Origin: a virus
Lineage: Duplodnaviria; Caudoviricetes
Direction: 5' to 3' (one strand)
DNA: 64,000 bases
Virus record (IMG/VR): IMGVR_UViG_3300033463_000005
Span: 1 to 64,000 of that record
Part shown: positions 4,081-54,404 of the stretch, in pieces
Layout of the letters: each line of letters opens with the position of its first letter
Numbering within the stretch: position 1 is the first letter of the stretch
Notes under the pieces: model-generated
Seen by the model: the letters and a program-made list of their open reading frames with translations, nothing else
What the model was told of the DNA's origin: nothing
Databases searched by the model: none
Translations under genes and position numbers: made by a program

Positions 4081-4106
4081 ATGTGGTGGGAGTAATCCCA
4101 CCACAT
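4081..4106. terminator. Intrinsic terminator-like hairpin
   Basis: ATGTGGTGGGA-GTAA-TCCCACCACAT, 11-bp perfect stem just after a stop codon. Confidence 0.7.
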
Positions 4107-14951: not shown

Positions 14952-17921
14952 ATGAACAATCTTCAATTGATGAAAAACCAAAAGAAGAATGCAATGAGCG
15001 AATATTTGTTGAAGATTCAAATCATTGTAACACATACAGAATTCAAGAACAAAGATGAAGCGGATAAATATGAAACATTGGATTCCAGATTGAATGGAGA
15101 TAAATATTGTCGCGCGATGAATCATACTGACATATTTGAATCTTATGAATACAACCCAATTGTCATATATCAAACGTTGATAGAATATGGGTTTGATGAT
15201 CAACAGGCACAGCGAATGTTGCATGATTTGAATATCATTCCATATCCAATCAAACAGAAACTGATGGTATCTGCAAGGGAACAATTCATTGCATCATATA
15301 CGGAACCAAACCCATACTATGTGATGTTAACCGGCAAACCATTCCAAGGAACCACACAACTTCCGCCGGAGCATGTTGTCACAATCCCGGATGAATTTTA
15401 CAACATTTATCAGAATGAACATGTGATATCACGCAATCAAGCGATTCATGAATTACCACCAAAATATCAGGAATTGTTCATGAATTCAAAATACTATCAA
15501 CAAGTATTGGACGAAAATCCAAATCATCCGTATCTAAAATACATTGGTTCCAATGCGATTCCGATTCATGTCGCGAGAAAAGCACATGACGGGGATATTA
15601 TGAAAATCAATACGGATCATCTGACGATGTCACATCCGGTATTTGGTAATGTGTCGGTTGAATCGGATTTGATTCATCTGTTCACAAACGTTTATCAAGA
15701 TACGCACAAATACATTTACCAAACATTACGCGGTGACTTCAATGACATCTATCCAAATTACAATTCGTTTATTCGGTTCTTGACGATTTACATGGCAATC
15801 GGTGGCTGCATGAATGAATTGATGAAAAAATCAACGTCCATGATTTACATGAATCAAACAACAGCAAATGATTTCTTCATGCTGTATGGATTACCATCCG
15901 TCATCATGTCAGGTCAATCCATGATTTCATTCCTGAAACAATTCCGATTGATTCTGATGGACAAAGGAACGAACATCGTATATCGTGTGAAAGATTTGAT
16001 TGGATACGAGTACACGGATATCTATACACTTGTCATGGTAAAACAACAAGTGTTTGAACAAGGTAAACCGAAATTCATTGAGAAAGATGGCGAACGTGTA
16101 CCGGTACAAGAAATTGTATTCCGTCGATTGGGAACGACTGCGGACAATACATCATATTTCAAATACCGTGATTCGGATATATCATATCCATGGGAAACGA
16201 TTGCATCCGGTGATCCGCGTTGGTGGAATACACCCGAGATGGAATCGATTCTCAATGACATGAATTACACATTATCCAATTCGAAATATATTCAATTGTC
16301 AACACACCTATCCATGTCGGATATTTATTGGCAATGCGTCATTTTGATTCGTGGTTTATTGGATAATCGAAATGAAACCCAGTATACAAATATCGCGTTA
16401 TCCACCATGATCAATGGAAAAAGTGAAATGTCCATATTTGAGGCAGTATTGATTCTGGAAATTTTGATGAATTGGCAGATTACGACTGCGCGTGGAGATT
16501 CATTGCGTGGTGACATGTATTTGCCAAATGGAAGATTCAATGGAGCTGCTGCATGTCTGGATATGTTATTCAACGGATTACAATACTATGATCCCGTGTT
16601 GTATCCGGATGTTACCCAAGAACAAGATGGTTTACCAAATCCATTGATCGAAGGTCTCCCATATAAAGTGTCATCATTCAATTTCAATTTACGAACGGAT
16701 GACAATGATTTCTATCAAAGCATTCAGTATATGGAATACTTGGAACCAGAAACGTTGTATTCAATGTTGGATCGTATTTATGACAGAAATGAAAATAATG
16801 TCGGATCCGTATTAATGGGAGATGTGAAAAAAGTATTTTCGTTCTTGGAAACGAAACTGCAACAAGCATCCAATATCCATGAATTCCGTCAAGTGACTGA
16901 AGCTTATAATCATCTATTCCTGGTTGATCCAAATCGAAATTGGTATGACGAGGGAACCATTAATGTTGATGCATATCTCACGGAAGCATATCAGTTGTCG
17001 TATAATGAATTGACACAATTGAAAACATTCTTTGAACCAAATCATGAAGACCTGACAATTGAGTATCAGAATGAAACATTCCCAATCTCCATATATAATA
17101 TCATGAACGAAGATGCATACACATTGGAAATTAATGGAACCTATCCGTTCCAGCAGAATCAATTTGTTTCATTATTCCAAACTGCAATGGATACATATCA
17201 ATCAGAAGCATTTATTTCTGCTCGCGGTATTTCATCCAGTTTGAAGAATGTGTATACGGATGTCATTGTTGACAAAGTGATTTTGGATACTGGTAATAAT
17301 CTACTTGGTCCAAAAACATTTGACGCATTGTTGTTCCGTATGGATGCATCTACATATCGTTATCTTGTATCATTGAAATCAAATCCGGATATGATGCTGA
17401 TGACAGTTCGTTCGATTGTGAAATCATTGGAAAGTTATGTGAATACATCGTTATCTGGTTTGGAATTCAAAGCACTTGGAGAAGATAACTATTTTGACAT
17501 TCTGAAACAAGTTATTGGATATTTCAAATCATACATGGTTGAATACACGAAAGATGAATTTGTGTATATCTTTGATGGATTATTTGACCATGGTGGAAAT
17601 TCAAATATGTTGAATCTATATGATGAGATCTCACATGGGTTATTACGTGTCATTCCAAAAGATTCCTTAACATTACATGATGCATCACATGCATTACGTG
17701 GATATGGTATGGAAGACTATGGACTTCGGTCATTGTATGATGAAGCACAAGTTCATCGTCGTGTAACATACAAAAAAATCAAGGAATTGGGCTATGACAT
17801 CATATTTGACACTGGTAAGAAGTTGACACAAACTCCCGATAATCTTCCGGATGACAATGACAAAGTTGAATTCTCATTGTATCAGACAGGAAACACATAT
17901 CAAGTCAGAATTTATTTATAA
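14952..17921 (+). CDS. Virion structural protein, baseplate wedge-like
   Basis: 989 aa; YTEPNPYYVMLTG, ILMDKGT, DPRWW and VIGYFKSY recall large baseplate proteins of phiKZ/AR9-like phages; late-type promoter. Confidence 0.6.
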   Translation: MNNLQLMKNQKKNAMSEYLLKIQIIVTHTEFKNKDEADKYETLDSRLNGDKYCRAMNHTDIFESYEYNPIVIYQTLIEYGFDDQQAQRMLHDLNIIPYPIKQKLMVSAREQFIASYTEPNPYYVMLTGKPFQGTTQLPPEHVVTIPDEFYNIYQNEHVISRNQAIHELPPKYQELFMNSKYYQQVLDENPNHPYLKYIGSNAIPIHVARKAHDGDIMKINTDHLTMSHPVFGNVSVESDLIHLFTNVYQDTHKYIYQTLRGDFNDIYPNYNSFIRFLTIYMAIGGCMNELMKKSTSMIYMNQTTANDFFMLYGLPSVIMSGQSMISFLKQFRLILMDKGTNIVYRVKDLIGYEYTDIYTLVMVKQQVFEQGKPKFIEKDGERVPVQEIVFRRLGTTADNTSYFKYRDSDISYPWETIASGDPRWWNTPEMESILNDMNYTLSNSKYIQLSTHLSMSDIYWQCVILIRGLLDNRNETQYTNIALSTMINGKSEMSIFEAVLILEILMNWQITTARGDSLRGDMYLPNGRFNGAAACLDMLFNGLQYYDPVLYPDVTQEQDGLPNPLIEGLPYKVSSFNFNLRTDDNDFYQSIQYMEYLEPETLYSMLDRIYDRNENNVGSVLMGDVKKVFSFLETKLQQASNIHEFRQVTEAYNHLFLVDPNRNWYDEGTINVDAYLTEAYQLSYNELTQLKTFFEPNHEDLTIEYQNETFPISIYNIMNEDAYTLEINGTYPFQQNQFVSLFQTAMDTYQSEAFISARGISSSLKNVYTDVIVDKVILDTGNNLLGPKTFDALLFRMDASTYRYLVSLKSNPDMMLMTVRSIVKSLESYVNTSLSGLEFKALGEDNYFDILKQVIGYFKSYMVEYTKDEFVYIFDGLFDHGGNSNMLNLYDEISHGLLRVIPKDSLTLHDASHALRGYGMEDYGLRSLYDEAQVHRRVTYKKIKELGYDIIFDTGKKLTQTPDNLPDDNDKVEFSLYQTGNTYQVRIYL

Positions 17922-17930
17922 ACAAAAAAA

Positions 17931-17958
17931 GAGAAGCGCGGGGTCACCCGCGCTTCTC
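17931..17958. terminator. Terminator between convergent genes
   Basis: GAGAAGCGCGGG-GTCA-CCCGCGCTTCTC with an A tract on the left (U tract on the minus strand). Confidence 0.8.
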
Positions 17959-18363
17959 AACCTCGTCGACCCGGACTTTCCATGTCCGGGTCTTCTTCCG
18001 TTTTTGGATGACGATGTACTCGCCATCCAAACTTTTAATTTTGTAATTCCCAGGGCGGATGACAAATCCGCCCTGGGAAATCACTCCGTCGGGAACGAAA
18101 ACTGTGTCCCCAACGGAGTATATACAGTGGGCATCAGAGTCTTCCGACTCGACGCCCACTGCTTCTGCATCGATGGTCGTGCTGTCGTCAGCAACGACAG
18201 CATTAACCTCACCGCACGTATTTTTGAAGTCACGCGCGGCGCTCATGGACTCGTAAACGGCGTCCATGACTTTTCTATTCTGGTGGACCTGGCGTCCACC
18301 AAAAAGCGCACCACCAAGCAGTGCGCCAGTTGCTGCCGATGCAGCAATCGCGATCAACATCAT
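17944..18363 (-). CDS. Small protein with N-terminal membrane anchor (early GC-rich operon)
   Basis: AAAGGAGG RBS; hydrophobic GxxxG-rich N-terminus. Confidence 0.75.
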   Translation of the reverse strand: MMLIAIAASAATGALLGGALFGGRQVHQNRKVMDAVYESMSAARDFKNTCGEVNAVVADDSTTIDAEAVGVESEDSDAHCIYSVGDTVFVPDGVISQGGFVIRPGNYKIKSLDGEYIVIQKRKKTRTWKVRVDEVEKRG

Positions 18364-18485
18364 CTGATTACCTCCTTTGTGTGACTGGCTTTATGGCGGA
18401 TAACCACAAGCCAGTCTTCGATCTCCTCGATACTCACATCCCCACCATCAGGCGGGGATGCGTTTTTTCGGTGGGGGCAGAGCAT
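18360..18485 (-). CDS. 41-aa ORF not in the track (MLCPHRKNASPPDGGDVSIEEIEDWLVVIRHKASHTKEVIR)
   Basis: Fills the gap between two genes; GGGGGTG RBS-like site; its TGA overlaps the next ATG (ATGA coupling). Confidence 0.55.
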   Translation of the reverse strand: MLCPHRKNASPPDGGDVSIEEIEDWLVVIRHKASHTKEVIR

Positions 18486-18489
18486 TGGC

Positions 18490-18792
18490 TCACACCCCCA
18501 GATCATCGATCATTTCTGCCGGCATCTCTGCCAGCAGATCTTCCTGCTGTTCCGGCGTTGGGCTAGTGGGCTCAGTACTCCCACCGGAGCTTTCACGGCT
18601 CTGTGCGTATGCATACGCACAGCCTGCTGCGGCGCCGATTGCGGCACCGATCAGCAGCCCCTTGCATGTTGCGCGGAGGGTATCTTTTCTGCCCTCCGCT
18701 TTGCAGGCCTTGATGTAGGCCTGCTCTTCCTCGGTGAGAATGGTTTCCCTCGGCTGCTCTTCAGCAGACTCCTTCTTCCAAAACCATTTCAT
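18490..18792 (-). CDS. Small single-pass membrane protein
   Basis: GAAAGGGGAG RBS; GLLIGAAIGAAAG helix. Confidence 0.75.
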   Translation of the reverse strand: MKWFWKKESAEEQPRETILTEEEQAYIKACKAEGRKDTLRATCKGLLIGAAIGAAAGCAYAYAQSRESSGGSTEPTSPTPEQQEDLLAEMPAEMIDDLGV

Positions 18793-18994
18793 GATATACT
18801 CCCCTTTCTGTCCCTATTAGGGACACTTAAAATTGGATTTCGAATCAACGACAATGATATTCGTTATGATCCACCGCTATCACCTGGGGATCAATTGAAT
18901 ACCATCATCTTGTATTCATATTAATAATATATATATGAAAATATAAAAAAATAGATATATGTGGGGGCTTAAGCCCCCACATACAATTCATACA

Positions 18995-24807: not shown

Positions 24808-25713
24808 ATGCAAACCATGGTTTACTCGCAAATGTATCCAGGAGATGTGAATTTCCTGGATTCTGTCGAGACCTATCTGAGAAAGACAGGACTCCCGGCA
24901 GGAATCACACCACAGGAGCGTCTGATCGTCGCGGAGCAGGCTCGTAACACACTGTATTCGTATGATGTGCAGTGCATTCCGAGAATTGCAAACAAGATTC
25001 TTACCTCTGATATGGAGAGTGATCAGGAAGCACGTGCTTTGTGGCTGGCCTTCACAAATCATGTGATGGATCCCATCTTTGTCCAGTTCCTGATGCAGTA
25101 TCTCGCTACAAGAGGTGACCTGTCTCTGAATGGTCAGGTTGGTGCGTTGCTTTCAAAAGCGCTCGACAAATTTTTCAAAGATCACAAAGCAGAGATTGAT
25201 GAAAAGAAAAAGGAAAACAAGCTTCCTGAAATCGAAGAAGTGAAGCATATCCAGGCGGCAATGGAATCGTTGCTTGGTAAAACTGCTGCTGATATTCAGG
25301 TGAGTGTTGCCGGTCTTTCTCATCCGGAAGCATTGTTTGTCGCCTCCTGCATCAACATCAATTCCAAAGAAACGATCATTGAACTGCTCGATTCCGGTCT
25401 TGGTATCACGGCAGATATCTTTGATCTGATCAAAGACCCTGATAATCTGGTGAGAGGTTGTCTGTCACTTCTGAAGTCAGAGGTTCCGACAAAGCCGAAT
25501 AAGAACCAGACTGCATTCCTGGATTCAATCAAGCGTTGGACATTCCTGAAGCTTGAACACATTCCTGGTGGAAATGCGGTATGTTATCAGTATCTCGTCG
25601 GTGTATATGGTAGCGTGAAGCCCGATGTATCACCGTACTATATCCAGATCAAGGATTGCGGTACAACGTTTCCAAATCTGATTCAAGTTGCGAAGCAGAT
25701 TGTGAATAAATAA
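24808..25713 (+). CDS. Hypothetical protein
   Basis: AAGGAGG RBS; early-type promoter at 24744. Confidence 0.8.
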   Translation: MQTMVYSQMYPGDVNFLDSVETYLRKTGLPAGITPQERLIVAEQARNTLYSYDVQCIPRIANKILTSDMESDQEARALWLAFTNHVMDPIFVQFLMQYLATRGDLSLNGQVGALLSKALDKFFKDHKAEIDEKKKENKLPEIEEVKHIQAAMESLLGKTAADIQVSVAGLSHPEALFVASCININSKETIIELLDSGLGITADIFDLIKDPDNLVRGCLSLLKSEVPTKPNKNQTAFLDSIKRWTFLKLEHIPGGNAVCYQYLVGVYGSVKPDVSPYYIQIKDCGTTFPNLIQVAKQIVNK

Positions 25714-25727
25714 GGGAGGTATATACA

Positions 25728-26228
25728 ATGTTAGAAAAGATCAATCCGAATGTTCAGAGACTCATCACCCCGATCGTTCAGAGAATGACTTCGATTTATA
25801 TCACAGAGAAGTCAAATCCTGTGATTGGCAATACGAATCACGGTGATCAGTACAAGCGTGAGAAGCAGGAATGCGTTCACATCATCTTTGATGGCAATTC
25901 TCCTGTTTGCAAACTCGAGAAGACTGCCGACGGAAAGTTGAAGTGCGCTGCTTGCGGTCGTGAAATCTACAGCAAGTTCGATGGTTCCAATGTGAAAGCG
26001 CTCCTGGAAGCAAGACAGGTTGTTGAGCAGGTCATGTATTTTGGCATGGTGAACAACCTGAACGCAGATATCGTTGCAGGTTGCATCGATATGAAGAAGA
26101 TGCTTCCGGACCTCGCTCAGATTGCTGCAGAGCTGAACGAATATGTCAAGCGTGAAGACAGCAACACCGACACGGTCAATAACGTCGGTAATGAATATCG
26201 CTTCGGTGGTATCACTTCCGGTTTCTAA
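25728..26228 (+). CDS. Hypothetical Zn-binding protein
   Basis: CVH...CAACG; GGGAGG RBS. Confidence 0.75.
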   Translation: MLEKINPNVQRLITPIVQRMTSIYITEKSNPVIGNTNHGDQYKREKQECVHIIFDGNSPVCKLEKTADGKLKCAACGREIYSKFDGSNVKALLEARQVVEQVMYFGMVNNLNADIVAGCIDMKKMLPDLAQIAAELNEYVKREDSNTDTVNNVGNEYRFGGITSGF

Positions 26229-26274
26229 TGTGAAGAATGTATATGGGGGCATATGCCCCCATATACATTTTTTG

Positions 26275-27537
26275 TTAATTTGAACATAGTTCCATTGTTG
26301 TTTGCGTAACGAATTTATCACCAGAGCTATTTGTCAACACATGACACACGTATTTTGGTCTATATGATGATGCGATGTTCAATCCGCGAATCGGTGATTC
26401 GAACACAAGATTGAATCTCGCGGTCGGTTGGAATTCATCGATATAAAATCCCGCACCAGATATATCAACATGTGTGATACGTTCATTCAATCGTGCAGCT
26501 TCTTGTATTGATATGGAACGCTTGTCTGTTTTGTGTAAGCGGTTCTTTTGATCAATTCTGTTTTGTATTGTATCAATATCAGTTGTATCAAACAATTGCT
26601 TTAGTTGAACCGAATTTGCTTGTAATGTATTCACGTTAATATCAGATATGATCTCCGGATTTAATACACGTTCAATATCTGATTCTGATAGTATGGATAC
26701 GTGTATTGCAGCAGTTTGAAATTTGTATTTTCCTCCTGTTAACAGTATACCGCTTTCATCTGTATTCAATTTTTCCGTTCGAACATAAATCGGAATTGTT
26801 TGAGTCTGGTTGTATGATGCGGAATTACACAAGTACATTTTTTCTTGTGTAAAATCATAATACAACATTCCACCATGATCATACAATCCATAATATCGAT
26901 CAAAGTATGTAAATGATTCAATCATTGTTAAATTCGGAATGAGTATCTGATCATATCGTGTTTGATTGTGAATTGGATCAATCGTGAGTTTGTTATTATT
27001 GATTCCGGTTCGTTTCAATAAGTCTCGGACAACTGTCTCCACTGTTGTATTCCGATAGATGGAAGGTGCCCGTTGACGCATTTTATGGGTGATACTGTTA
27101 TCATATGCGAACAGTTCAAATGCGGTTTTCTGATCAACGTTCAAATCGGTTGAATCTTTTTCACCAAGTTTATATTGATCCATTTGTGAAATTGGTATAT
27201 TTTTATTTGCAATATATCCTTTGACTGAAAATCGAATAGATGGAACCGATCGAACAATCATAACAGTTTCATCATTTGATCGGTATATTCCACCATCCAT
27301 ATTACATACGATTGATATATTATTTGGATCAACATTGATATTTTCAATCAAAGATGTATCCGCATAAAATCGAAATCGCACAATTGGATATGTTGATGTA
27401 TCATATCGATGGATGATTGCAATGGATATAATATCACTTGGTTTGAGTTCGTAATATACATTCTGAACCCATAAACCAAGTGTGACATTGTACATTGTAT
27501 TGTACACATCTGCCATGAAGCTCACTTCTTTCATCAT
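26275..27537 (-). CDS. Probable virion structural protein (baseplate hub-like)
   Basis: 420-aa beta-rich ORF with QILIPNL and RYYGLY; the start may be 27516. Confidence 0.5.
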   Translation of the reverse strand: MMKEVSFMADVYNTMYNVTLGLWVQNVYYELKPSDIISIAIIHRYDTSTYPIVRFRFYADTSLIENINVDPNNISIVCNMDGGIYRSNDETVMIVRSVPSIRFSVKGYIANKNIPISQMDQYKLGEKDSTDLNVDQKTAFELFAYDNSITHKMRQRAPSIYRNTTVETVVRDLLKRTGINNNKLTIDPIHNQTRYDQILIPNLTMIESFTYFDRYYGLYDHGGMLYYDFTQEKMYLCNSASYNQTQTIPIYVRTEKLNTDESGILLTGGKYKFQTAAIHVSILSESDIERVLNPEIISDINVNTLQANSVQLKQLFDTTDIDTIQNRIDQKNRLHKTDKRSISIQEAARLNERITHVDISGAGFYIDEFQPTARFNLVFESPIRGLNIASSYRPKYVCHVLTNSSGDKFVTQTTMELCSN

Positions 27538-34966: not shown

Positions 34967-35077
34967 GTATCCTATTATTCTGACTTTTCATATATATATT
35001 ATTAATATGAAGAGAGAATAAATTACTCTCTTTACAAAATTTTTACTGGTCTCTATGAGACCGGAAAGGAGAAAACA

Positions 35078-35413
35078 ATGTTTGTAGTAATATTAAAAGT
35101 TAGGCGGATGACCACAGAAAATGATGAGGTTGTCCTTGACGAAAGATCAGAGAGAGTAATCTCTCTGAGAGCCGATTTGGCTTCCGCAATTGTGGATGCC
35201 AAAAAAGCATCCGACAGTATATGGCTGTCCACATGCCTACTTGAGTATGAAACGACCATGGAATGCGAGCTTGGTGGGCGGTTGAACAACACATGGTGTT
35301 CGCCCGGCGAAAATCCCACAGAATTCGGTGGATATATAGACGATGGCGTCAACCACTTCAATTGGACGACCATTGTTGAGGAAGGTGACTTTTGGGAAGC
35401 AGAAGAATCTTGA
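35078..35413 (+). CDS. Acidic hypothetical early protein
   Basis: GAAAGGAG RBS; early-type promoter at 34995. Confidence 0.75.
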   Translation: MFVVILKVRRMTTENDEVVLDERSERVISLRADLASAIVDAKKASDSIWLSTCLLEYETTMECELGGRLNNTWCSPGENPTEFGGYIDDGVNHFNWTTIVEEGDFWEAEES

Positions 35414-35470
35414 TTCCATTCTTCTGCTTCCCAGGAAATAACGATCAATCGGAACCGGATTGAAAGGGGT

Positions 35471-35857
35471 ATGTATATGAAACGATATATTTGCAATGTA
35501 GATATTGGGCATCACATTTATACCGAGCTCGGAGTTCTTTGGATATGTGGAGAAAATGGACTCTTCGTCACCTATGACGAAAATATTACGATATCGTGGC
35601 GGTATGATAATGGCCGTGCAACCGGTCCACGGTTGGAAACAGATGCCATTAGAAGAGCAGCCGAGAGAGTCTCGGCTGCGGCAAATGCTGGTGAGCTCAC
35701 AGAGAAGCACATTGCGGATCTCGTATCCGCAATGATCACGGGCAAATATGATATGACGGAGGATGAGAGATATATCCTCCGGGCAAAGCGCGGTTATTAC
35801 CGTGCCAGAACTGGTGAACTTGTAAAGGTTCACCAGAGGAAGAGAAGGGGCGCTTAA
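35471..35857 (+). CDS. Hypothetical early protein with basic C-terminus
   Basis: GAAAGGGG RBS; C-terminal RGYYRARTGELVKVHQ resembles short nucleic-acid-binding beta-hairpin motifs. Confidence 0.75.
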   Translation: MYMKRYICNVDIGHHIYTELGVLWICGENGLFVTYDENITISWRYDNGRATGPRLETDAIRRAAERVSAAANAGELTEKHIADLVSAMITGKYDMTEDERYILRAKRGYYRARTGELVKVHQRKRRGA

Positions 35858-35880
35858 TGCGCCCCACTCTTTTTTTTTGT

Positions 35881-53836: not shown

Positions 53837-53878
53837 TCTGACACCTCCTTTCCAAACGTGGGATTAGATTGGGGCGCA

Positions 53879-54163
53879 TCAGCGCCCCAACCGTCCCATG
53901 TTCTTCTTCCACCGAGCGATGTACTCGCTCGGCGTTTCTTTATTTCTGATTGTCACCCAGAAGACAATCAGAATATTCGCACAGATCATCCAAGGATGAT
54001 CTTCCGCGATGGGGTTGTACCCCTCACGGATCAGATAATACAGGGATACAATCGTATTGATCCCTGTGAACCCGAAGAACATTAACCAGGATACAAACCA
54101 ACCAATGTTCTTCCAATTGAGGTGTCTTTTCACAGACGCCTTTCTTTCTAGCTTCTTAACCAT
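53879..54163 (-). CDS. Small two-helix membrane protein
   Basis: Start ATG 54163 after GAAAGGAG; two hydrophobic segments; early-type promoter at 54234. Confidence 0.75.
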   Translation of the reverse strand: MVKKLERKASVKRHLNWKNIGWFVSWLMFFGFTGINTIVSLYYLIREGYNPIAEDHPWMICANILIVFWVTIRNKETPSEYIARWKKNMGRLGR

Positions 54164-54257
54164 TTTGATCTCCTTTCTGTGACATGAGTTGAAATTTATT
54201 TGTTTAAAATATCTCATGTCAATATAATAATATATATATATGTAATATGAAAAAAGA

Positions 54258-54404
54258 AGAATGTGGGGCAAAAGCCCCACATTCAAATCAGGGTGATTCT
54301 TACCCGATGAGTTAAGGTAAGAATCGGCTAGGAGGCAAGCAATGGCCCAATGAGTTCGGAAAATCTTCAACGGCAAGTGAAGATTGGGTTCATCAGATGA
54401 ACTT
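54258..54404 (-). ncRNA. Candidate small RNA C
   Basis: GACA-AAATTG-TA puts +1 at 54404; stems 54362-69/54378-85 and 54295-304/54316-25; GCCAUUGCUUGCCUCCUA between them; ends at terminator 54258-83 with a U tract. Confidence 0.6.

Follow-up and report, generated by a model that had tools for sequence, protein, structure and literature searches.

The DNA analysed here, referred to as the window, comprises the first 64 kb (positions 1 to 64,000) of the virus record IMGVR_UViG_3300033463_000005, a genome of 258,509 bp with a GC content of 38.8%. Positions 17931–18941 of the window appear to form a single minus-strand transcription unit, consisting of a predicted early promoter, a 125-nt leader, three linked open reading frames (ORFs) of 100, 41 and 139 amino acids (g100, g41 and g139) and an intrinsic terminator (Table 1). 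This unit, hereafter the cassette, is located two genes from the gene of an SbcC-like ATPase. An earlier sequence-only reading described it as a GC-rich early operon whose coding sequence is tiled with perfect hairpins, and attributed the tiling to selection for RNA structure over protein sequence. Our analysis indicates that the hairpins have very likely been selected at the RNA level, alongside selection on the encoded proteins.

The cassette is found in five other metagenomic contigs, where it occupies the same position following the genes for the SbcC-like ATPase and a 69-aa protein. Pairwise synonymous divergence (dS) ranges from 0.27 to 1.9, and the ratio of nonsynonymous to synonymous divergence (dN/dS) from 0.12 to 0.45 across all three ORFs. 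Together with insertions and deletions that are in frame, these values show all three ORFs to be genuine genes subject to purifying selection, including the coupled 41-aa frame (18485–18360, on the minus strand like the other two) that the sequence-only reading had picked out. Helix 8 holds the start codon of g41 in its loop, 4 nt past the g100 stop codon, and the ribosome-binding site of g41 is sequestered; the g41 stop codon in turn overlaps the g139 start (ATGA).

The product of g100 has one central hydrophobic glycine-zipper segment (residues 45–63) and an acidic C-terminal tail. In g139, a hydrophobic glycine-zipper segment at the N-terminus is joined by an acidic linker to a small SH3-like beta-barrel at the C-terminus (residues ∼79–139), the predicted structure of which has a confidence (pLDDT) of ∼85 over residues 79–139. 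The sequence-only reading described both as small membrane proteins; the Kyte-Doolittle maximum over 19 residues is 1.94 for g139 and a borderline 1.54 for g100, which also gives weak matches to glycine-zipper families in Pfam. The product of g41 is a small soluble peptide with the conserved pattern PPDGGD..EIEDWLxVIRHKASH. None of the three proteins matches a family above threshold in Pfam, PHROGs, PADLOC or NCBIfam, and a Foldseek comparison of g139 with the PDB returned generic SH3/Tudor-like small barrels only, with E above 0.01. When 1.84 billion representative proteins were searched with a profile, only this phage clade and one weak match were found. The latter, the sole protein beyond the clade to match the g139 profile, is the 3190-aa metagenomic P0009 (E 1.8e-4, residues 897–959, three stretches), which suggests that the SH3-like barrel may occur as a repeat in this giant protein.

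Using a strict definition of a hairpin (a perfect stem of at least 8 nt and a loop of 3–20 nt), we counted 11 hairpins in 17931–18941, as compared with a mean of 0.26 and a maximum of 3 in 300 dinucleotide-preserving shuffles. Stems of at least 9 nt number six, against 0.04 in the shuffles. The region is the densest 1-kb hairpin window of the entire 258.5-kb genome, for which the mean is 1.37 per kb. All four inverted repeats quoted in the sequence-only reading are in place, at 18047–18079 (14 nt), 17968–17992, 18281–18301 and 18383–18416. The GC richness noted there is equally clear: the island at 17931–18800 is the strongest in the genome and peaks at 59% in a 300-nt window. Composition alone cannot explain the hairpin density, however, because the other GC-rich genes of the genome (47–52% GC) contain no perfect hairpins at all, and we therefore reject GC content as the cause. 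A search against Rfam at a permissive threshold gave a best match of 24 bits, against a gathering threshold of 50, so that no family could be assigned, and no tRNAs were found in the region.

The folding energies point in the same direction. When the coding sequences were compared with codon-preserving shuffles, the mean local minimum free energy (MFE) in 90-nt windows gave z scores of −5.7 for g100, −3.3 for g41 and −11.3 for g139, and homologs down to 57% protein identity retain values of −4.2 to −9.1. By its own criterion, the sequence-only reading would be contradicted by z scores no lower than those of shuffled controls or late genes; our comparison with controls and other genes did not contradict it, and g139 lies far below the genome baseline of −2.3 ± 1.7 (minimum −7.2). 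With dinucleotide shuffles as the reference, the mean z over the transcript's first 630 nt is −3.03, whereas 50 control genes, the calls of which are crude, average −0.61 ± 0.42, with none below −1.83. The MFE of the whole transcript is −48.3 kcal/mol per 100 nt, compared with −23.9 ± 2.5 in 15 control mRNAs. Folding beyond that of both the shuffles and the other genes of the genome is thus clear for g139 and the whole transcript and partial for g100, and it is not seen for g41 by codon shuffles alone. A few control genes also have a strong codon-shuffle excess, namely 100677–101435 (minus strand, z −7.2), 200859–201290 (minus strand, −5.1) and 190416–190790 (minus strand, −5.3); the last of these lies directly after a predicted early start at 190819.

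The five related haplotypes differ from the window in a sharply delimited manner. The flanks are 94–99.5% identical to the window, the coding part of the cassette only 70–86%; identity falls from ∼99% just past the leader stem-loop (∼18826) and recovers at the terminator (∼17960). Because of this difference, and of dS values of up to 1.9, the cassette alleles appear to be far older than their flanks. There are mosaic junctions inside g139, where the window sequence equals that of haplotype L004 over approximately the last 100 nt of the gene. The cassette is the most diverged, mosaic segment seen and the fastest-diverging locus of its neighbourhood. A second, milder divergence zone was observed at 25000–27400 of the window, where identity to L001, a relative of 17.8 kb, is 82–92% as against 94–99% around it. 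Nucleotide searches of phage collections, as well as scans of viral and metagenome contigs with the peptide pattern and a conserved leader 20-mer, yielded no further relatives.

This divergence allows the pairing itself to be followed. We ran RNAalifold on the six-row alignment of the window and the five haplotypes and obtained a consensus of 24 local helices comprising 190 pairs, with 94.9% of the cells paired. Twenty-four pairs have changed on both sides; shuffling the columns gives 10.2 ± 2.1, with 0 of 500 shuffles as high, and the number falls to 2–7 when the partners are slid by one to three columns. Pairs between two wobble positions covary in 11 of 19 cases; no codon register is preferred for wobble-to-wobble pairing (the registers hold 58, 80 and 38 pairs). 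Helix 5, a palindromic hairpin, is a clear example: both of its wobble-wobble pairs (221/236 and 224/233) covary synonymously, GCG TAT GCA TAC having become GCA TAC GCG TAT in haplotype L002. The long back-to-back helices 20 and 21 are paired to 100% and 97.8%, respectively, across the haplotypes, with exchanges among G·U, A-U and G-C and one compensatory pair. Third codon positions are variable in 51% of paired but 81% of unpaired columns (p = 9e-8).

Covariation of this kind could be mimicked by template switching at quasi-palindromes, which changes both arms at once and would perfect them without any function of the resulting structure; several stems are indeed perfect over 9–14 nt. We nevertheless consider such a mutational by-product very improbable, as the helix positions have been kept through dS values of ∼1–2 and down to 57% protein identity, G·U pairs persist, stems show slower evolution at wobble positions than loops do, and the other GC-rich genes of the genome lack such hairpins. 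GC at third codon positions (GC3) argues against it as well: it is 0.52–0.65 in every haplotype, far above the 0.35 of the genome, despite near-saturated synonymous sites. Paired columns have a GC content of 64.7% and unpaired columns 46.6%.

The high GC3 also bears on the origin of the cassette. With its own promoter and terminator and a composition that is the most GC-rich of the genome, the cassette resembles a phage moron, and its proteins are orphans; it might thus have arrived recently from a donor of higher GC content, its composition and repeats being inherited baggage. The persistence of high GC3 between alleles whose synonymous sites are almost saturated suggests, however, that the GC richness has been maintained rather than inherited. 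Absence from some close relatives, a further mark of morons, was not found, as the cassette occupies the same site in all five haplotypes. It also uses the phage's own early promoter, and no homolog was found outside the phage clade among the representative proteins searched, apart from the one weak match. A recent foreign origin is therefore hardly credible.

We next consider which nucleic acid folds. Many of the stems are perfect palindromes, the gene of the SbcC-like ATPase is two genes away, and the antisense strand folds nearly as well as the sense strand (alifold energies of −151 and −165 kcal/mol, respectively). The hairpins might accordingly act in DNA, as cruciforms or single-strand hairpins used in recombination or replication or by the SbcC-like nuclease, and this would account for the locus being a hot spot of variation. 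Nevertheless, three counts show G·U in excess of A·C on the strand that is transcribed; changes on one side of a Watson-Crick pair led to G·U in 27 cases and to A·C in 12, and isolated internal mismatches, in sequences that are not independent, comprise 12 G·U and 4 A·C. G·U is the commonest pair at fifteen helix positions, whereas G·T would be a mismatch in DNA. Folding z scores are always lower for the sense than for the antisense strand, the hairpins fill exactly the interval from the predicted +1 to the terminator, and elsewhere in the genome an excess of hairpins follows early promoters in the direction of transcription (see below). The evidence thus leans towards hairpins that act as sense-strand RNA, without being decisive, and we regard a role in DNA as improbable.

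The predicted promoter places the cassette in a genome-wide context. The early promoter of Bacillus phage AR9 has been defined experimentally as AAATATATATTAT-N6-G(+1), with a 13-nt AT-rich element (PMC5312081). In front of the leader we find ATATATATATTAT-TAATAT-G, which matches the AR9 consensus AAATATATATTAT at 12 of 13 positions and has the 6-nt spacer and the G at +1, in agreement with the early-type operon of the sequence-only reading. A G likewise follows after 6 nt at each of the 13 exact TATATATTAT sites in this genome. As the genome encodes two separate beta-like polymerase proteins (PF00562) and one beta'-like protein (PF00623), the phage is most likely an AR9/phiKZ-style jumbo phage with two multisubunit RNA polymerases; its SbcC-like ATPase is distantly similar (27–37% identity) to the counterparts of Staphylococcus jumbo phages S6/PALS_2 and Bacillus phages AR9 and PBS1. 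From the motif and the polymerase gene set, the cassette is predicted to be an AR9-type early promoter unit.

The leader forms a long stem-loop in which +1 is paired with +76 (18917–18842). A second hairpin, GTCCCTA/TAGGGAC (18809–18825), precedes the Shine-Dalgarno sequence AGAAAGGGGAG. The first paired base lies at +1 to +3 in all 13 predicted early transcripts (at +1 in 11 of them), compared with 46.5% of random GA-starting sites. An identical 27-bp promoter block is also present on the plus strand at 34985, 145359 and 171562, with starts at 35009, 145383 and 171586. In each of the nine early promoters inspected, including the four that share this block, a GC-rich terminator hairpin precedes the promoter. 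A module of terminator, promoter and stem-loop thus seems to be repeated around the genome, in a manner reminiscent of the PeSLs (promoter-early stem-loops) of T4-type phages.

The hairpin excess is shared by several of these units. Perfect hairpins downstream of the 13 predicted early promoters average 3.5 per 800 nt, against 1.09 genome-wide, and the excess follows the transcription direction of each promoter. In six of the 13 early regions (starts 54220, 18917, 145383, 190819, 38363 and 35009), the mean folding z is below that of all control genes, with values of −4.99 for 54220, −3.03 for 18917, −2.53 for 145383 and −1.96 for 35009. The proposal that core genes lack such a density therefore applies to most genes, whereas a comparable degree of structure is found in a few further early cassettes that we predict, such as that starting at 54220. 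The 54220 unit (53869–54385, minus strand) ranks second in the genome in hairpin density, with 9 perfect hairpins and the lowest z among the early units. Its transcript contains a small ORF, the product of which looks like a two-segment membrane protein of ∼94 aa, and with a GC content of only 41% the region folds without a GC island. The early unit at 34985–35870 (plus strand) shares the 27-bp promoter in identical form and contains a stem-loop at +1 and five perfect hairpins, including one of 16 bp at 35393–35433; our crude ORF caller placed a junk-looking antisense ORF there.

Taken together, the energy excess over codon and dinucleotide shuffles, retained in homologs down to 57% identity, the conservation and covariation of pairs, the slower change of wobble positions in stems and the maintained composition argue for selection on folding. 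The phrase RNA structure over protein sequence is too strong, however, as the dN/dS values place the proteins under purifying selection as well.

Several points weigh against this reading. By the genome baseline of codon-shuffle scores, g41 is ordinary and g100 high but partly a non-outlier, so that only g139 is extreme. The covariation counts come from only five haplotypes and are not independent events, and the consensus structure was predicted and scored on the same alignment. Unpaired wobble positions are GC-enriched too (0.53 versus 0.35), which the consensus stems alone do not explain. The strand asymmetry is modest, since a structure defined on the antisense strand still contains 67 G·U cells as compared with 85 on the sense strand. 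The class of the promoter is predicted from a motif, and four of the 13 early regions (144282, 208684, 235102 and 236125) have z scores of −0.57 to +0.37, similar to an average control gene. Downstream of eight promoter-motif sites in the first 50 kb of AR9, the sequence is neither GC-rich nor hairpin-rich; as far as sampled, we thus reject the notion of a general trait of the AR9 lineage. Finally, we found no RNase III or RegB of the phage that would demand self-protection, although the RegB model matched no control genome, which makes this a weak negative.

Table 1. Features of the cassette and its surroundings (coordinates of the virus record)
Feature	Coordinates	Strand	Remarks
Upstream unit, intrinsic terminator	18956..18985	−	13-bp stem and T-run, directly before the early promoter; identical in relatives
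AR9-type early (virion RNA polymerase) promoter, predicted	18915..18941	−	core ATATATATATTAT 18936–18924; 6-nt spacer 18923–18918; +1 G 18917
5' leader, 125 nt	18793..18917	−	MFE −43.5 kcal/mol; near-invariant among relatives up to ∼18830
Hypervariable segment	17960..18826	−	70–86% nucleotide identity among haplotypes; mosaic
g100, 100-aa protein	18490..18792	−	helices 1–7; dN/dS 0.12–0.22; codon-shuffle z −5.7
Helix 5, palindromic hairpin	18597..18624	−	spans codons for A-Y-A-Y-A
g41, 41-aa ORF	18360..18485	−	dN/dS 0.12–0.45; kept in every relative covering g41
g139, 139-aa protein	17944..18363	−	helices 11–24; codon-shuffle z −11.3
Helices 20 and 21, back-to-back long hairpins	18043..18117	−	helix 20, 18085–18117, 12 bp; helix 21, 18043–18084, 18 bp
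Cassette intrinsic terminator (helix 24)	17931..17958	−	12-bp stem, T-run to ∼17921; one compensatory pair
Predicted early starts, in window	18917, 35009, 38363, 54220
Predicted early starts, beyond window	129895, 144282, 145383, 171586, 190819, 208684, 235102, 236125, 240553

The cassette terminator is also coding: its 5' arm specifies the final residues (E-K-R-G) of g139, whose stop codon starts in the loop. Facing it, a convergent gene for a protein of 989 aa ends at 17921, and since its stop is only 10 nt from the terminator, the latter probably serves both transcription directions. On the other side, the terminator in front of the early promoter closes the unit of the SbcC-like gene (850 aa) and the 69-aa gene. 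Further away, at 4084–5229 of L001 (∼23.6–24.7 kb of the window), we observed a tubulin-like gene (Pfam Tubulin_2), near the cassette in this AR9-like relative.

We propose the following explanation for the folding. Transcription by the virion polymerase would begin at G 18917 of the minus strand and yield an RNA that opens with the +1 stem-loop and closes at the intrinsic terminator, and between these ends the transcript would fold into ∼22 local hairpins over the three coding sequences. Selection would keep the hairpins, their stems being GC-enriched, slower at wobble positions and repaired by compensatory changes, while rapid divergence between phage strains affects the proteins and the unpaired synonymous sites. 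End-dependent decay may be blocked by the +1 stem-loop and the 3' hairpin, and the internal hairpins would leave little stable single-stranded RNA for endonucleases or RNA-guided defences. The result would be a long-lived, nuclease-resistant early mRNA. That stability or shielding is the purpose of the folding we consider reasonably probable, although with ample room for doubt. The upstream block of terminator, promoter and leader, together with the downstream terminator, probably provides homology arms for swapping diverged alleles between phages.

Such an mRNA could still be translated. The ribosome-binding sites of g100 and g139 have unpaired probabilities of 0.45–0.65 and are comparatively open (the transcript mean is 0.34–0.37), whereas that of g41 has a value of 0.26, and g41 might be reached by translational coupling to the preceding gene. 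These features are also relevant to a different purpose of the hairpins, which may slow or gate ribosomes such that two possibly toxic membrane proteins are made in small, coupled amounts or are inserted co-translationally, as in folded type I toxin mRNAs and the RNA-structure gene control of single-stranded RNA phages. A hydrophobic glycine-zipper segment occurs in two of the three products, neighbouring ORFs touch or overlap, g41 starts in a hairpin loop with its ribosome-binding site hidden, and the second most structured early cassette, that starting at 54220, encodes a small membrane protein too. On the other hand, few parts of the RNA are as open as the ribosome-binding sites of g100 and g139, and the +1 stem-loop and terminator point to control of decay. 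We regard control of translation as a serious possibility, though a tentative one of rather low probability; it is compatible with the stabilization of the early mRNA and does not exclude it.

The sequence-only reading had mentioned RNA-targeting CRISPR as one threat from which the first-made mRNAs might be protected. If the tiling served as a counter-defence at the level of RNA, the earliest phage mRNAs, offering no stable stretch of single-stranded RNA, could escape RNA-guided (type III/VI CRISPR) or single-strand-specific abortive-infection nucleases, which we think unlikely. Under the same assumption, the near-saturated synonymous divergence of the cassette between genomes that are nearly identical elsewhere might represent escape from sequence-specific RNA targeting while the fold is kept, a suggestion that is no less doubtful. 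We also looked for an antisense partner acting in trans and reject this possibility, as no complementary stretch of at least 15 nt occurs elsewhere in the genome except for the promoter repeats.

Hairpins at the ends of mRNAs are textbook knowledge, but we found no description, in the literature searched, of an entire coding region tiled with conserved, covarying hairpins in the mRNA of a DNA phage. The case is all the more unusual since the locus is also the fastest-diverging of its neighbourhood. With five diverged alleles, the ∼1-kb cassette is a natural test case of how far protein coding and RNA folding can be co-optimised, and of whether jumbo phages that use an injected polymerase protect their first RNAs by structure. 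If shielding proves true, it would bear on the success or failure of RNA-targeting defences against such phages.

The nearest known concepts are end-hairpin stabilisers, GORS (genome-scale ordered RNA structure) and PeSL cassettes; what is new is the ORF-wide tiling with covarying hairpins in an early, hypervariable DNA-phage cassette. GORS is found in whole genomes of RNA viruses of vertebrate hosts and has been proposed to hide the RNA from host sensors. Like GORS, the cassette shows pervasive folding through coding sequence beyond the protein code, seen as an excess of MFE over shuffles. Unlike GORS, it concerns a single DNA-phage mRNA of ∼1 kb, in which discrete hairpins keep their positions and covary. 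Bacterial mRNAs are known to be stabilised by 5'-terminal stem-loops and 3' hairpins (reviewed in PMC3997798). As in the leaders of E. coli ompA and papA and B. subtilis aprE (PMC3997798), a +1 stem-loop is present in the cassette, together with a 3' terminator hairpin, and would block end-dependent decay; the known stabilisers, however, are single elements in untranslated regions, whereas ∼20 further conserved hairpins tile the coding sequences of the cassette.

In T4-type phages, PeSL cassettes consist of repeats of a terminator stem-loop and an early promoter that bracket small variable early genes, and the blocks are proposed to let cassettes move between phages (PMC2839356, PMC4122927). 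The likeness lies in a composite that is repeated around the genome, with conserved brackets and variable, mostly orphan early content. The phage lineage, polymerase and promoter are different, however, PeSLs are without structure inside the ORFs, and a PeSL-like swapping of the cassette is suggested by the identity profile only. With the early promoters of AR9 (PMC5312081), the cassette shares the motif, the spacer and the G start, and two polymerase beta-like genes are present in this genome; the difference lies in what follows the promoters, which in the first 50 kb of AR9 is neither rich in GC nor in hairpins. Type I toxin mRNAs of the hok/sok type also resemble the cassette in being highly folded and in combining a small hydrophobic protein with a coupled upstream reading frame. 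The proteins of the cassette are larger (100 and 139 aa), however, no antisense partner was found in the genome and no sequence family match links them to such toxins.

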